Shown here: positions 8,211 through 22,245 of the stretch, one piece after another | Layout: every line of letters starts with the position of its first letter | Numbering within the stretch: position 1 is the stretch's first letter | Assembly (NCBI GenBank): GCA_965371515.1 | Contig: CBDUYR010000023.1 | Span: 1-41,933 of the forward strand | Length of the DNA: 41,933 bases | Direction of reading: 5' to 3' | Source: an uncultured bacterium | GTDB lineage: Bacteria > Krumholzibacteriota > Krumholzibacteriia > Krumholzibacteriales > Krumholzibacteriaceae | Made by a program: the position numbers and the translations under genes | Notes under the pieces: generated by a model | Seen by the model: the letters and a program-made list of their open reading frames with translations, nothing else | The model's database searches: none | Told to the model about the DNA's origin: nothing

Positions 8211-8768
8211 TCAGTCAGGAGAAGGTTCTTTAAATAAGCTTTGATAATCTGATTTGTAGGACGCTGGTATATCTTTATTGTAAATCCAGAAAGACACAAT
8301 CGATCTGATTTGACTCATATCGACAAATCCCTCATCCAACAAATCCTTCAATAAATGCAATGTCTTAATTGTGCGGATTTCAAACTCCTCTGCCACACCC
8401 ACCATATCCATATCATCCGTAACAACAGGGAGGTCCATTGCTTTCGCAAAAGCCAAAACTTTCATATCCACTCTCGACAAACCAATCCCCTGCATTAAGT
8501 CATAATCGTCTATGAACTTATATACTTCATGTATTTTAAAGAGCATTTTCTTAGAAACAGAAAAACAACTCTTCCTATTAATGACATATTCTTCTTCGCC
8601 AACCCAATAGAACTTATGCTTCAACTTCTTGTTTTTACTGTACTCTTCATCGAGGTCCCTTATTACACCAAGCACATGGGATCCCATTTTGGTTTTCAAG
8701 AGAGGGTGAATAGCTTGAGCCAATCTAAAATATGAACATGAATCGAGAATAACGTTGCACGCAACCAT
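8211..8768 (-). CDS. PIN-domain-like protein (putative toxin/nuclease)
   Basis: N-terminal VILDS; LSRVDMKVLAFA...VVTDD...IKTLHLL acidic PIN pattern; ATG overlaps upstream stop (TAATG); AT-rich. Confidence 0.72.
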   Translation of the reverse strand: MVACNVILDSCSYFRLAQAIHPLLKTKMGSHVLGVIRDLDEEYSKNKKLKHKFYWVGEEEYVINRKSCFSVSKKMLFKIHEVYKFIDDYDLMQGIGLSRVDMKVLAFAKAMDLPVVTDDMDMVGVAEEFEIRTIKTLHLLKDLLDEGFVDMSQIRSIVSFWIYNKDIPASYKSDYQSLFKEPSPD

Positions 8769-9901
8769 TACCAAAGCTCTTGGTAAATTTGTTGTGCATC
8801 TGCCAGAGGAATATTGAGGATATTCTGAATGTAGCCTGGAGATTTCCTTTCTTTTGCGAGATATTCCCTTAATATATCGAAGAAATTACTATCGAACAGG
8901 TTTCTTGGGGATTCAATATATTCTCGTGTTGTAGGTTTTTCCTTTTTGAACACAAACTCAGCAACCGTCGGATATTGTTTGTTAAAGACAGTTGAGGCTC
9001 TATATATTTCAGCTCTCGAATCCAAATCTATTTGCTCTTCCCCGACAAAATCAGCGTATCTATTCATTTCAAGATAGACAGTAATAGGAGAAATCAGAAG
9101 TTCCGCTGCAACCTTCTTAATTCTGGATATCCGATGTGGTTTTGTTCGCAATTTTTTTACTTCAAAGTATGTTTGTTTTGCTGTTTCAACATCAATTAAA
9201 AGAGCACCAGCGAATGCATCAGCAAAATCTTCTGCTTCATCTTCATTTAATTCCGGAGCATTGACATGGCCGAGTTCATGAGCCATCCAGAATTTAAAAT
9301 CATGGATATTGCTATCTAGATTAAGATAAATCCAGGTCGTCATCGACCGAGGAAGATAGACATGCAAAGCATTTTCATGATTATCCTTGCTTCCCCATAG
9401 AACAGGGATGATAACAGCATTATAGACGGCAAAGCACTTGATCAAGTTATCAAAAGGAATCGCGCCGTGATCGGAATTTATACTCTCTCTAATTCCGGCA
9501 GCAACTTCATGGATGTATTCATATTCCAAGATTGGATTCTTCAGTGAAGCGGCCTTGGTAAATCTAGATTCGAATGTCAGATAAGGAACCAGGTTTTCAA
9601 GAAGCTTACCCATCCTTGAAGTATTTTTAATGTAATCTTCTGTTATCTTATGCCGACCTTTTTTTCTGAAAGCTATTACGGGCTCAAAACCATCTACTTC
9701 CTTTATAACAATATCCTCAAAGGTAAGATCCAATGATGTCGCTATTTTCAGAAGGTGTCTTGGGCGGGGATACTTTTCTGCTTTGAACCACTGAGATATG
9801 GCTTGACGTGACACTCCGATATGCTCAGCAAGATCTGACCTAGACCATCCAAGTTTATCCAATGTTTCTAGAATTTTCGGGGCATTTAAGCGTCTGTTCA
9901 T
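8768..9901 (-). CDS. XRE-family HTH fused to ImmA/IrrE (M78) Zn metallopeptidase, RmrA-like putative antitoxin
   Basis: HTH WSRSDLAEHIGVSRQAISQW; FWMAHELGH (HExxH) then EDFADAFAGALL; start ATG 9901 with GGAGAGG upstream; AT-rich. Confidence 0.88.
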   Translation of the reverse strand: MNRRLNAPKILETLDKLGWSRSDLAEHIGVSRQAISQWFKAEKYPRPRHLLKIATSLDLTFEDIVIKEVDGFEPVIAFRKKGRHKITEDYIKNTSRMGKLLENLVPYLTFESRFTKAASLKNPILEYEYIHEVAAGIRESINSDHGAIPFDNLIKCFAVYNAVIIPVLWGSKDNHENALHVYLPRSMTTWIYLNLDSNIHDFKFWMAHELGHVNAPELNEDEAEDFADAFAGALLIDVETAKQTYFEVKKLRTKPHRISRIKKVAAELLISPITVYLEMNRYADFVGEEQIDLDSRAEIYRASTVFNKQYPTVAEFVFKKEKPTTREYIESPRNLFDSNFFDILREYLAKERKSPGYIQNILNIPLADAQQIYQELW

Positions 9902-9918
9902 TTCCCTCTCCAACTTAC

Positions 9919-9947
9919 AGGATATACTATTGTCAACTTTTGTCAAC
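9919..9947 (-). promoter_or_regulatory. Putative promoter with tandem GTTGACAA repeats
   Basis: Minus strand GTTGACAAAAGTTGACAATAGTATATCCT: TTGACA-16 bp-TATCCT, with an 8-mer repeated 10 bp apart. Confidence 0.5.
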
Positions 9948-18373: not shown

Positions 18374-19534
18374 TCAGTCGTCATCATCATCTTTGTCGTC
18401 ATCGTCGTCCTTGTCATCATCGTCATCGTCGTCCTTGTCGTCATCGTCTTTGTCGTCATCGTCGTCCTTGTCATCGTCGTCGCAGTCATCACAGTCACCG
18501 TCAGGAACGGTAGTTATATGATCCCACGCCTCAAACTCGAATCCATCGAGCGTCATGCCCCACAGTACCAGCATCGTGTCGCTGCAGACAACACCGGTCT
18601 CCTTGATGCGGAAGTGGAGCATCAGGTCGATGTCTCCGTCTTCGTCGACATCCGCGTAGTGGCACTTGCCGTGAGTCTCATATGCGCCGAGCGGCCCGAA
18701 GCGGACCGTTGCGCAGTCCACGGCCTGTACGTCGAACCCGTCGGTCGTAAGGATCGCTACCGGAATGACTCCGTTTCCCTTGTTCTTGCAGTTGACAGGG
18801 TTCTTGTCGCTTCCCGGCTTGATGTCGATTGTAACATCCGGAGCGACCGACCAGGTCAGCTCTGCCTCGAACTGAACGTACATGCAGTCGACCGAATCGA
18901 CACTGCGCCCTGCCGGCTCACCGAACTCACCGGTGCCGGTGTTGACCAGGTCGAATCTCAGGAAGTTGATCGCGTCAAGGGTGCTGCACGGTTCGCCGCC
19001 CGGCGGGCAGGCCGGACTGATATTGAAGAGCGAATCGATCGAGATCGTCTCTTCCCAGACTCCGCCCACGAGGCTGGCGGTGCCGATATAATTGTCGTTC
19101 AGATAAATCTCCGCGCCGTCGTCGGCAATCACCTTGAGATGCATCGAGGGAGCGGTAGCACCATTGGGGAAACTGAATTCGGTCTGGAAGACGCCCAGCG
19201 AGTCATCCTGGCTGTGCGTCGTCACTGCTTTCGACATGACAAGCATGCTGGTCGGATCGGGGCAGGGGCACATGGGGCCGCCGCCGCCGATCAGGGCGGG
19301 CCATATCTCTTCGAGAGGCGGTACGGTAACATTGATGTTGGTATCAACGCCGCCGCAGGTGTCAACGCCGCTGTAGATCGTCAGCGTATCGGGACCGTAG
19401 TCCATCGACTCGAAGCTGAAAAAGCTCATCGAGGCGTCGCCCGCGACGGGGTTGTCGTCGCTGCTGCAGCCTCCGTAAAATAGAAGAGCCGCCGATATGA
19501 CCAATGCGGCGGCAAGGATCGTCATTCTTTTCAT
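18374..19534 (-). CDS. Cys-rich lipoprotein with IDIKPGS...PVAIL domain and Asp-rich tail
   Basis: Lipobox-like YGGC; IDIKPGSDKNPVN...VIPVAIL...DVDEDGDIDL; C-terminal (DDDDK)n; SD GGAGG. Confidence 0.75.
   Translation of the reverse strand: MKRMTILAAALVISAALLFYGGCSSDDNPVAGDASMSFFSFESMDYGPDTLTIYSGVDTCGGVDTNINVTVPPLEEIWPALIGGGGPMCPCPDPTSMLVMSKAVTTHSQDDSLGVFQTEFSFPNGATAPSMHLKVIADDGAEIYLNDNYIGTASLVGGVWEETISIDSLFNISPACPPGGEPCSTLDAINFLRFDLVNTGTGEFGEPAGRSVDSVDCMYVQFEAELTWSVAPDVTIDIKPGSDKNPVNCKNKGNGVIPVAILTTDGFDVQAVDCATVRFGPLGAYETHGKCHYADVDEDGDIDLMLHFRIKETGVVCSDTMLVLWGMTLDGFEFEAWDHITTVPDGDCDDCDDDDKDDDDDKDDDDKDDDDDDDKDDDDDKDDDDD
18377..18496 (-). repeat. Low-complexity (GAY)n/AAR codon repeat encoding the Asp/Lys tail
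   Basis: gtcgtcatcatcatctttgtcgtcatcgtcgtccttg... on the + strand. Confidence 0.85.
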
Positions 19535-19732
19535 CTCAGCCCTCCGTTGTCTCAGTACCAGGGAACGATTTATGATTGGGAGTAATTATACGCTATCGAG
19601 CAGCTAGATTCAACAGATAAGAATGATTATCATCTTTTTTTACCTTGTTTCCGGTCGACCGGCGGGATAGTGTCATGTTCCTGCTCACATCCGGAAGGAA
19701 CCGGTGGATTCCAACCGGGTTATTTTTTTACT

Positions 19733-19760
19733 ACCGTTATGCATATCCGTGCATAACGGT
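19733..19760. promoter_or_regulatory. Perfect 11-6-11 palindrome resembling a ModE (molybdate-responsive) box
   Basis: ACCGTTATGCA-TATCCG-TGCATAACGGT versus recalled ModE consensus ATCGnTATATA-N6-TATATAnCGAT; 47 bp upstream of ATG 19808. Confidence 0.65.
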
Positions 19761-19807
19761 CTGGTTCGTTCCTCGATTCGCATCCGGCTATGGAAAGGAC
19801 GGTATCG

Positions 19808-21046
19808 ATGAGGGTCTTGCGATGCATACGGTTGCAGTACATCCTTCTGCCTGCCCTGGCTATCGTCATGGGGCTTCTGCTTAACTGCTCCGACAACGAT
19901 CCGCTGGCGCCTGATGAGATCAGGTCCTCGAGGTCATACCGGGGACATGCCTCAGACACCGATATAAACAACTTCGTCAAGGCTTACCCTCACACGGTCG
20001 GCACGCGCCTAGACGACTGTCAGACCTGCCACAGGGGAGGTGAGGTCACGGGCGACAGGGGTGTCGTCACCGCGAATCCCTGCGACTACTGCCACTTCGT
20101 GATCCATCCGCCTGAAGGATGGACCGGACTTCCGGCGAGCTTTTCCGAGACGCTCAACCCGTACGGGACCGCCTATGACAACGCCGGCAGGAACGGTCCG
20201 GCGCTCGAGGCGATCGCCGGCCTCGACAGCGACGGGGATGACTTCGACAACGATGAAGAAATTGACGACCTGAGATATCCCGGGGACGCTGGGAGCTACC
20301 CCGGCCTCGAGCTCTGCTCTATGGTGAAGGTGACGATGGAGGACCTGCTGCAGATGCCTTCCCACACCCAGTTCGGGCTGGCCAATACCACGAAGCAGCA
20401 GTTCGACTACTACGCGACCTACACCGGCGTGAAGATCAAAGACCTTCTCGATGCCATTGGAGCAGACCTCACCGGGGCGACGAGTGTCGACGTGCTGGCC
20501 CCCGACGGATACGCCCGCTCGTTCACCGTCGAACAGATAACGCGGCAGTATCCCGATCACAGGTTCTGGACGGGATTCGATGTATACGCCCTCGGCGCGG
20601 ACTGCGCTTTCATCGAATATCCCCCCGAGATTTACAACCTGGGTCATGGAGACTGGATAGGCCAGAACACCGGCCACGAGCAGTGGCACATACTCGCCTG
20701 GGAACGCGACGGCGCCCCCCTCGAGAAATCGTACCTCGATCCCGTGACGGGCAGGATCATCGGCGAGGGACCGTTCAGAAACGTGATACCGCCGGGTTCG
20801 GACAACGACGTGTACAACACACCGGACAGGGGAAAGAACCAGGACAACACGGGGTGTACCCTGCGCGAGTGGGATTTCGACCCTGACAAGGACCACAACG
20901 CGGGAAACATGATAAAGGGCGTTGTCATAATCCGAATAAACCCCATGCCCGAGGGATGCGAGGAGTTCGACATCATCAACGGCGGATGGTCGCTCATCGA
21001 TGAGGAGGCAATCCTCGTCTACGGTCACGGGGTGCCGGCGAATTGA
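19808..21046 (+). CDS. Diheme c-type cytochrome lipoprotein (GEGP-motif type) with C-terminal sulfite-oxidase-like molybdopterin-binding domain
   Basis: Lipobox LLLNC; CQTCH and CDYCH; LNPYG...DSDGD; YTGVKIKDLL...APDGY...ILAWERDGAPL...GEGPFR...IKGV; SD AAAGGA before 19808 (ATG 19790 also possible). Confidence 0.8.
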   Translation: MRVLRCIRLQYILLPALAIVMGLLLNCSDNDPLAPDEIRSSRSYRGHASDTDINNFVKAYPHTVGTRLDDCQTCHRGGEVTGDRGVVTANPCDYCHFVIHPPEGWTGLPASFSETLNPYGTAYDNAGRNGPALEAIAGLDSDGDDFDNDEEIDDLRYPGDAGSYPGLELCSMVKVTMEDLLQMPSHTQFGLANTTKQQFDYYATYTGVKIKDLLDAIGADLTGATSVDVLAPDGYARSFTVEQITRQYPDHRFWTGFDVYALGADCAFIEYPPEIYNLGHGDWIGQNTGHEQWHILAWERDGAPLEKSYLDPVTGRIIGEGPFRNVIPPGSDNDVYNTPDRGKNQDNTGCTLREWDFDPDKDHNAGNMIKGVVIIRINPMPEGCEEFDIINGGWSLIDEEAILVYGHGVPAN

Positions 21047-21048
21047 AC

Positions 21049-22245
21049 ATGAGAACAGTTATCACAAAAAGGACGCTCCTTGCCGTGGCCCTGCTGTCTT
21101 CGGCGATCGTATCCACTCCGTTATCCGCGTCGGCGAATGAAACCGAAGGAACTTCCCCGACTCTCGACATGGAGGCCACGGCCAGTTTCTGGTGGACGAT
21201 CCACGAGCAGGTCCAGAACGGCCTGGTCCAGCCGGGAAGCGGAGACAGGGCCGCCGATCACGCGTCCGGATTCGCCTTCAGGCATGGAAGGATCGCCTTC
21301 ATCCTCGGATCGTCAGGCGGCGATCTCGAGCTTCTCCTGAGGTTACGACTGGAGGAGAGAACGGACATCGTCGACTTCTACGGCGGGTGGCTGCCGTCGC
21401 AATACTTCAGGATATATATCGGGCAGATGAAGATCCCCTCGACCGCCGAGGTGCTCACTGCCTACAACGATCTCGACTTCGCGTCGAGATCGACATTCGG
21501 CAGAAAGATCGGCGACTATTCAATGACCAGGACACCTTATATATCGTCGGTCATGGCGGCGAAATCTTACGACAGGGACCTCGGGCTGGCGGTGAAGGGA
21601 TCATGGCCGGGCGACCGGCAGTGGGAGATCCGCTGGTTCCTGATGGCGGGGAACGGCATGGGAGCCAACAGGTACATCGGCGGACGCGAGAACGAGGAAT
21701 TCCTCTACACGAACTCGCTGGGCAACATGTACTACGGCGGGCGGCTGGAGATCACACCCATACACTGGGTTACGGCCGGCATGCATGCGAGCAGCAACGA
21801 GCACAACGACATCGCCCTCGGCGACCGCGGACCAGTGATGGATATCAGCCGCAAGGCCTGGTCGGCCGACATCGCCGTCGGCCACCCGCATGGACCACGG
21901 ATGTACGGATTCTACGGAGCGGGCGAGATGGACGATTACTTCGACGCCCAGCAATACCTCTTCGACTATTCGGGATGGGGCCTGCAGGGGATCTGGCCTC
22001 TGCTGAACGGCAATCTCGAGCTGGCGCTGAGGTTCGACAGGTTCGTCAGCGAATCGGGCCGCGACGGTAACGAGACGATCCAAGACGACTGGACGGCGGG
22101 GATAAACTGGTCACCACTGGAGAACATGAGACTTCAGCTCAACTACGTAAACAAAAGGACGTCGAACGAATTCGAATCAGACATCGATGACGACATCCTC
22201 TACATGAACTTCCAGTTCTACTTCGACACGCGGATCACGCGCTGA
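21049..22245 (+). CDS. Outer-membrane porin, OprO/OprP (anion-selective)-like
   Basis: Signal peptide; FAFRHGRI, IGQMKIP, LDFASRS, RDLG, YGGRLE, ELALRFD, WTAGINW, RLQLNY; starts 2 nt after the diheme gene. Confidence 0.78.
   Translation: MRTVITKRTLLAVALLSSAIVSTPLSASANETEGTSPTLDMEATASFWWTIHEQVQNGLVQPGSGDRAADHASGFAFRHGRIAFILGSSGGDLELLLRLRLEERTDIVDFYGGWLPSQYFRIYIGQMKIPSTAEVLTAYNDLDFASRSTFGRKIGDYSMTRTPYISSVMAAKSYDRDLGLAVKGSWPGDRQWEIRWFLMAGNGMGANRYIGGRENEEFLYTNSLGNMYYGGRLEITPIHWVTAGMHASSNEHNDIALGDRGPVMDISRKAWSADIAVGHPHGPRMYGFYGAGEMDDYFDAQQYLFDYSGWGLQGIWPLLNGNLELALRFDRFVSESGRDGNETIQDDWTAGINWSPLENMRLQLNYVNKRTSNEFESDIDDDILYMNFQFYFDTRITR

Follow-up and report, generated by a model that had tools for sequence, protein, structure and literature searches.

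A ModE-type operator, a diheme lipoprotein and an OprP-like porin as a candidate outer-membrane module for tungsten in an uncultured Krumholzibacteriaceae bacterium

Operator, lipoprotein and porin at the locus

The window, a 41,933-nucleotide (nt) stretch of an uncultured Krumholzibacteriaceae genome (assembly GCA_965371515.1, contig CBDUYR010000023.1), carries a module in which a ModE-type operator is followed by the gene for a GEGP-motif diheme lipoprotein and then by that for an OprP-like porin (Table 1). All three lie where an original prediction, made from the letters of the DNA, had placed them. The module is real and very likely linked to tungsten. Candidatus Krumholzibacteriota genomes are the closest named relatives, at 86-88% identity, and a cytochrome c assembly gene is present in the window's own genome.

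The arms of the palindrome (19733-19743 and 19750-19760) are 11 nt long and 100% complementary across a 6-nt spacer, and the repeat ends 47 nt upstream of the likely lipoprotein start at 19808. The five nearest loci retain these arms with a varying spacer, as does a single distant locus, L112. Its 9+9 core is the sole site in the genome with 0 mismatches, the next best having 4. An operator matrix trained only on the wtpA leaders of 25 relatives, to avoid circularity, ranks the palindrome first among 3,077,427 genome positions (32.3 bits) and the genome's own wtpA site second (27.6 bits); only three sites exceed 15 bits, the third standing before a Porin_4 gene (19.8 bits). Because a wtpA-only matrix orders the genome in this way, the palindrome is very likely a ModE operator, in agreement with the original prediction. 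It differs by one mismatch from the gel-shift-tested Methanosarcina ModE motif RTTATGT-N8-RCATAAY (PMC12327845). The features of a ModE regulon are also present, in that this predicted site fits the lineage motif, a modE gene exists in the genome, and the motif is shared with the molybdenum/tungsten (Mo/W) importer. The palindrome can fold as an RNA hairpin (z -2.4), as any palindrome can; an RNA element is disfavoured because spacer variability and similarity to the wtpA sites point to a DNA operator.

The lipoprotein open reading frame spans 19790-21046 with its TGA stop at 21044-21046. Its real start is probably ATG 19808, since a 412-residue database entry is 100% identical and the starts of homologues align there; residue numbers are counted here from ATG 19790. 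The protein scores 448 bits against NCBIfam NF041762 (curated cut-off 300), covers profile positions 1-358 of 359 and carries two CxxCH motifs and the GEGP motif, making it a full-length family member. Its structural model is confident (predicted local distance difference test 87, predicted template modelling score 0.80). A loose pattern finds lipobox-like leaders in 93 of 103 homologues and a strict twin-arginine (Tat) motif in 0 of the 103, and the twin-arginine export expected of a sulfite-oxidase enzyme is not seen in the lipoprotein. The missing TatC of the window's genome was dropped as an argument, TatC being present in 58 of 61 relatives and its loss here thus probably an assembly gap.

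Both CxxCH motifs are invariant in 40 of 40 aligned homologues, and the invariant H53 is a candidate distal heme ligand only. The acidic segment that follows is likely a calcium site, judging from its conserved residues; weak Temptin_C matches occur in 22 of 40 family members. A small single-CxxCH Temptin_C protein resembling the N-terminal half of the lipoprotein is encoded elsewhere in the genome (G000:C41, L146:1814-2248), and weak matches akin to it occur in most relatives. The C-terminal domain (residues 176-387) has a predicted sulfite-oxidase/PruR fold. Fold searches return the sulfite-oxidase family and PruR at Z 8.8-11.5 with a root-mean-square deviation (rmsd) of 2.1-2.5 over 120-126 aligned residues; ten entries with Z of at least 8 comprise SorA, SoxC, SorT, sulfite oxidases, nitrate reductase, MsrP and PruR, headed by PDB 2blf and 2xts, and the next, unrelated, has Z 2.8. 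Foldseek places PruR structures first (E 8e-4). The two c-hemes and the molybdopterin-binding-type domain of the original prediction are thereby upheld at the level of heme motifs and fold, whereas the Pfam PF00174 match is weak (E 0.009) and below cut-off. A sequence search of solved structures with the lipoprotein gave no real relative, and a search of the ESM Atlas gave unnamed clusters only.

The domain conserves N199, D206, Y208, R330, H369, N370 and K/R376, with column counts of 239/239 for N/D199, 236/237 for D206, 208/210 for R330, 205/206 for N370 and 203/205 for K/R376. The metal-ligating cysteine is missing: in a weak alignment (E 0.13) the MsrP cysteine falls opposite T200, and among 234-239 homologue rows cysteine is not one of the five commonest residues at positions 196-203, nor is tryptophan common there. 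The same alignment sets an MsrP arginine against R330, and R330 and K376 presumably lie where enzymes of the family hold the cofactor phosphate. A literature check on MsrP cofactor contacts returned nothing relevant. These features bear on whether the lipoprotein could be a tungsten or molybdenum enzyme acting outside the cytoplasm, a counterpart of SoxCD or SorAB in a single chain, with metal-pterin on Asp206 or Asn199 in place of the cysteine, hemes removing electrons and the porin admitting an anionic substrate. Sulfite-oxidase fold and c-hemes together are the SorAB/SoxCD arrangement, down to the top fold matches, and the kept D206, N/D199, R330 and K/R376 also favour such an enzyme, which we nevertheless regard as unlikely given a ligand hairpin free of cysteine and leaders free of a Tat signal. 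Exported molybdopterin enzymes are normally loaded in the cytoplasm and exported by Tat.

Extra tails in 11 of 39 distant homologues scanned (FlgD-Ig, SLH, cell-wall-binding or carboxypeptidase-regulatory domains) also suggest a function in the cell envelope. Cys33 is followed by acidic residues similar to the surface-export signal of Bacteroidetes (PMC5080379). As such residues occur across phyla, a cell-surface location for the lipoprotein stays a guess.

The porin gene begins at ATG 21049, 2 nt past the lipoprotein stop, and its product matches Pfam Porin_O_P with E 9e-14 (51.9 bits against a cut-off of 20.9). The model has 16 long strands, as do Porin_O_P/OprP-like barrels, and its best fold match is OprP (2o4v; Z 29.7, rmsd 3.2, 315 aligned), compared with Z of at most 26 for general porins and Z 12.9, rmsd 9.3, for MtrB. 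The OprO/P-like assignment made at the outset is thereby confirmed. Five arginines (R81, R176, R232, R268, R328) are invariant in 49 sequences; further arginines or lysines are near-invariant, but some aspartates and glutamates are invariant too, and the protein is a candidate anion-selective porin. A c-type cytochrome lipoprotein gene directly 5' of a barrel gene could also suggest a minimal porin-cytochrome conduit carrying electrons across the outer membrane, the alternative offered by the original prediction. The barrel is far closer to OprP than to MtrB, only two hemes are available, no multiheme or quinol-oxidase partner appears among the labelled neighbour clusters and regulation by tungsten would be left unexplained. 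The conduit did not hold up, and is the least probable of the readings considered. A complex prediction for lipoprotein and porin, run without controls, scored 0.00 and is counted neither way.

Upstream of the operator, the candidate promoter does not appear in the promoter-scan output, and L035 and L036 have better sigma-70 matches at the equivalent place. The leader (19685-19729) has multiple CCGG blocks together with a hairpin and T run just ahead of the operator, as it does in four close relatives, a comparable hairpin and T run being legible by eye in L035-L038. It could be an attenuator; terminator-like matches number 3 against 1.9 expected, alone not significant.

Table 1. Features of the module and its leader, in window coordinates
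Feature	Position	Strand	Basis
Candidate sigma-70 promoter, -35/-10 hexamers 17 nt apart	19645..19673	+	read by eye, inferred
Short G+C hairpin then T run directly 5' of the operator, attenuator-like	19701..19729	+	terminator-like match
ModE-type operator (very likely), perfect 11-6-11 inverted repeat	19733..19760	.	motif ranking, repeat analysis
GEGP-motif diheme lipoprotein gene, 412 amino acids	19808..21046	+	NF041762, homologues, model
Cys33, predicted lipidation site after hydrophobic signal peptide	19886..19888	+	Cys in 39/40 aligned homologues
Heme c motif 1, C77-x-x-C80-H81	20018..20032	+	invariant in alignments A1, A3
Heme c motif 2, C98-x-x-C101-H102	20081..20095	+	invariant in alignments A1, A3
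Acidic D-x-D-x-D ... PG segment, temptin/TSP3-like	20225..20284	+	D146, D148, D150, E157, P164, G165 invariant
Predicted sulfite-oxidase/PruR-fold domain, residues 176-387, without metal-ligating Cys	20315..20950	+	fold searches, column counts
OprP-like 16-stranded outer-membrane porin gene	21049..22245	+	Porin_O_P, model, fold match

Pairing, control and gene context across lineages

Scoring 8000 candidates gave 1193 lipoprotein homologues, and the module was compared across 61 related genomes and the best 80 of 144 confirmed GTDB lipoprotein loci. Kinship inflates all locus and genome counts, nine Aminicenantes-like loci sharing one layout. Lipoprotein and porin occur in the same 13 of the 61 related genomes and are always adjacent, the lipoprotein scoring above cut-off in 11 and being split into pieces in 2. 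Contig ends cut 5 of the 80 GTDB loci; in 53 of the 75 with room for a downstream porin, the porin is next after the lipoprotein. A reciprocal scan, which used patterns from paired porins and covers this porin clade only, found 61 metagenome loci, and the lipoprotein lies upstream in 41 of the 45 having at least 250 nt of upstream sequence. This porin clade pairs near-obligately with the lipoprotein. Elsewhere other outer-membrane genes replace the porin. An SLH and Porin_5 gene in L112 (L112:7030-8520) is convergent with the diheme gene and has its own 28-bit ModE box; this porin family also precedes pstS in the window's genome (L145:1389-2483). TonB-dependent receptors flank the diheme gene in three Acidobacteriota loci (L085, L109, L110), two of which (L109, L110) have a second, divergent diheme copy and one (L085) an Oxidored_molyb and tetrapyrrole methylase fusion. 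In L079, L082, L083 and L084 the diheme gene comes after a nifU-nifS-thi4-like run, a possible link to sulfur transfer.

Three kinds of predicted Mo/W control element precede the module on separate branches of a quick tree (73 rows) and in several phyla. ModE-type boxes occur in 10 of the 80 loci on four separate branches, and in L058, L060, L068, L070 and L112 they overlap or follow the predicted -10 hexamer (by eye). In 12 loci a regulator with HTH_17 and PBP_like domains is encoded directly upstream, behind three 11-bp direct repeats that abut the -35 hexamer. This domain architecture is that of TaoR, a characterised regulator of a tungsten enzyme (PMC11980592), and we infer by analogy that the repeats are TaoR sites. 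A matrix from these 12 loci adds 4 loci scoring 17-29 bits and, at 12-15 bits, 2 weak matches in reverse orientation, 18 loci in total, and 14 of 2382 control windows reach 15 bits. A PBP_like match in the window's own genome was rejected as TaoR, being PstS-like. RF01055 riboswitches lead the operon in 5 loci; Rfam covered 22 of the 80, and a riboswitch pattern run over all 80 to take in the remainder found none beyond these 5. P3 is absent from the two whose alignments were inspected, and the rest have comparable lengths. The Escherichia coli molybdenum cofactor (Moco) RNA is an OFF switch, P3-less forms accompany tungsten genes, and two P3-less RNAs of S. wolfei precede 'putative sulphite oxidase' genes (PMC2408646).

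Control by TaoR, as the regulator of a tungsten enzyme (PMC11980592), with presumed sites in an activator's position, would sit well with an exported enzyme, whereas an OFF-type riboswitch and co-transcription with tupABC suit supply better than use. The 13 related carriers divide by genus: a TaoR-type gene lies upstream in the 7 that fall outside the window's genus, and a ModE box takes its place in the 6 that belong to it. This pattern suggests that one regulator was exchanged for another; the quick tree puts this genus among TaoR-type rows.

In 42 of the 80 loci Mo/W genes are found at a distance of up to about 8 kb, compared with 0.8% of random intervals in the genome to which the window belongs, and Mo/W genes or elements together mark 55 of the 80. 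The operon order is lipoprotein-porin-tupABC in L051, L058, L060 and L070 and riboswitch-tupABC-lipoprotein-porin in L066; tupABC, moeA and AOR are frequent neighbours across phyla, and moaA/C are common too. Porins, Mo/W genes and the palindrome, the three associations on which the original prediction had staked itself, were all found linked to diheme homologues. In the window's genome, another contig carries wtpABC-modE-moeA-moaA divergent from an AOR-domain/NuoEF fusion. The latter is a 1068-residue fusion of an AOR N-terminal domain to NuoE/NuoF-type parts (G000:C25:8674-18057, locus L032), and an open frame of similar length with an AOR N-terminal domain recurs in many relatives. The modE gene there (G000:C25:14987-15370) starts 4 nt after wtpC, which carries the genome's only TOBE domain; WtpC might lend ModE metal sensing through it.

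The Porin_4 gene behind the genome's third-best ModE-type site (G000:C107:908-2013, locus L144) has a 25.5-bit site in one relative and none in two others of the genus or in a fourth genome, and its homologues adjoin moeA/moaA/moaC in three genomes of another genus. It is a possible second entry route for tungstate.

The PruR-like fold and a histidine kinase cluster near the gene in 9 of the 80 loci raise the question whether the protein acts in signalling as a pterin receptor whose hemes sense the redox state. This we consider very improbable: the kinases vary in position and strand, the downstream gene is a porin rather than a DcpA-like partner, and the control elements are Mo/W-specific.

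Other genes of the window were noted beside the module. A divergent 386-residue lipoprotein-like open reading frame (18374-19534, minus strand) has a long Asp/Lys low-complexity tail and no Pfam or NCBIfam match. An HTH and Peptidase_M78 gene followed by a PIN-like gene (8211-9946, minus strand) resembles a toxin-antitoxin or mobile-element pair. A gliding-type ABC exporter, a methyltransferase and glycosyltransferases nearby were rejected as module parts, being common to close kin only.

A probable role in tungsten supply

WtpA is present in 13 of 13 carriers of the module (28 of the 61 relatives overall) and an AOR domain in 12 of 13 (34 of 61 overall), ModA was found in none of 46 searched genomes of the order, the 13 carriers included, and distant loci carry tupABC. 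As the carriers have WtpA, mostly AOR and no ModA, and as the riboswitches look P3-less, tungsten is more likely the metal than molybdenum. Even so, WtpA also binds molybdate, and molybdopterin-family proteins are encoded in the genome. The Mo/W link and the paired porin of the original prediction are strongly supported, and its alternative of molybdate or tungstate is narrowed to tungsten.

The module is probably the outer step of tungsten acquisition. This supply role is the most likely one because the module is co-transcribed with tungstate importers, is led by an OFF-type cofactor riboswitch in some loci and uses interchangeable outer-membrane routes. Taken as a whole, a scheme in which a ModE-controlled lipoprotein binds a tungsten anion and the porin feeds WtpABC or TupABC is judged more likely than not. 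Shortage of tungsten or of its cofactor would turn the unit on. The c-hemes are attached after Sec export, so any ligand must be acquired outside the cytoplasm; the lipoprotein would leave by Sec and pick up the pterin or metal in its pocket there. The lipoprotein would then bind a tungsten-bearing anion outside the cytoplasm, and its cysteine-free pocket with Arg330 and Lys376 may hold a tungsten species that WtpA or TupA cannot take, such as spent tungsten-pterin or thiotungstate. The two hemes could take electrons from this species and free tungstate, which the porin would pass on to the WtpABC or TupABC importer. Such a redox step is suggested because two conserved hemes would be superfluous in a protein that only binds its ligand; heme-driven oxidative release of tungstate is nonetheless a tentative proposal. 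Similarly speculative is a wider picture in which many uncultured anaerobes mine tungsten at their surface, the lipoprotein trapping tungsten-pterin released by dead cells, or thiotungstate present in sulfidic water, and oxidising it, and the porin delivering tungstate. If true, the module would be the first system found to acquire tungsten at the outer membrane, and it would put the sulfite-oxidase fold to a new use.

The intact tungsten-pterin cofactor could instead be salvaged, with the pocket holding and protecting it, the hemes maintaining its reduced state, and entry by way of the porin or a TonB-dependent receptor. PruR, whose structures head the Foldseek matches, shows that a cysteine-free fold of this kind binds periplasmic pterins (PMC11194511), TonB-dependent receptors flank the gene in the three Acidobacteriota loci and cofactor-sensing riboswitches control the module in 5 loci. 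The inner-membrane partners in the operons are nevertheless tungstate ABC importers, the common neighbours moeA and moaA/C serve cofactor synthesis from the free metal, and the neighbour clusters of the 80 loci offered no conspicuous conserved gene that could be a cofactor importer. Salvage of the intact cofactor is accordingly judged improbable, and supply of tungstate to the importers is preferred.

Several observations weigh against this preference. The module is dispensable, as 15 of the 28 WtpA-bearing relatives do without it; 22 of the 75 loci with room do not have this porin, and 25 of the 80 loci have neither a Mo/W gene nor a recognised element, some of them on short contigs. Both the TaoR-type repeats and the wtpA ModE box abut the -35 hexamer, a placement typical of activators, and the direction of control proposed above is accordingly tentative. 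The genome's own ModE is a DNA-binding domain only, of 127 amino acids and without a metal-binding domain. The putative roles of R330 and K376 lean on the weak MsrP alignment and on structures of the family.

Comparison with known systems

Tungsten uptake has been described at the inner membrane, through TupABC and WtpABC. Listings of open-access papers showed no title on an outer-membrane tungsten route and no paper on the GEGP diheme family. The parts of the module come from known families (NF041762, Porin_O_P, ModE sites), of which NF041762 has a name that carries no function, and their combination fits no system found. The original prediction had likewise known of no characterised system with this layout, and assignment to sulfite-oxidase enzymes, PruR-DcpA or porin-cytochrome systems failed in each case. 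SorAB, SoxCD and MsrP (PDB 2blf, 2xts, 1xdq) share the fold of the cofactor domain, and SorAB and SoxCD have adjacent c-hemes; the lipoprotein differs in having neither ligand cysteine nor Tat signal, in carrying its hemes in the same chain and in its porin partner. PruR (PDB 7kos, 7kom, 7rkb, 7kp2; PMC11194511) is likewise exported, with a sulfite-oxidase fold that does not have the molybdenum-ligating cysteine. It is a single small domain paired with DcpA that has tryptophan at the cysteine position (PMC11194511), whereas the lipoprotein is extended by two hemes, a lipid anchor and long insertions, lacks tryptophan there and is paired with a porin; the small Pro-Trp domain and the DcpA-type operon are both missing. 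MtrAB-type complexes (PDB 6r2q) also place a cytochrome gene beside a barrel gene. Unlike their wide multiheme barrels, the barrel here is far smaller, with two hemes only and metal-supply regulation. The known regulons of ModE, TaoR and the Moco and tungsten cofactor (Wco) riboswitches (PMC12327845, PMC11980592, PMC2408646) share motif geometry, regulator architecture and the RNA family RF01055, and the excerpted texts of these papers name no heme lipoprotein-porin target.

A porin clade tied to one heme lipoprotein, under three unrelated Mo/W controls and in several phyla, offers a concrete candidate for an outer-membrane tungsten route. With it, the passage of tungsten across the outer membrane and the possible scavenging of spent tungsten cofactor or thiotungstate by bacteria become testable questions. 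It would also assign a likely function to an NCBI family so far unexplained, and give cysteine-free sulfite-oxidase folds a second task beside that of PruR. The nearest parallel is Pseudomonas aeruginosa OprP/OprO (PDB 2o4v, 4rjw) with the Pst importer, which shares the 16-strand barrel, conserved arginines, a profile match (E 2e-4) and co-regulation with an oxyanion ABC importer. The present porin differs in its 16% identity, in Mo/W rather than phosphate control and in its tie to a heme lipoprotein, and the window genome's own pst operon has a separate, different porin (Porin_5). By analogy, the best reading is that the module works most like OprP with Pst, with a redox-capable capture protein added.

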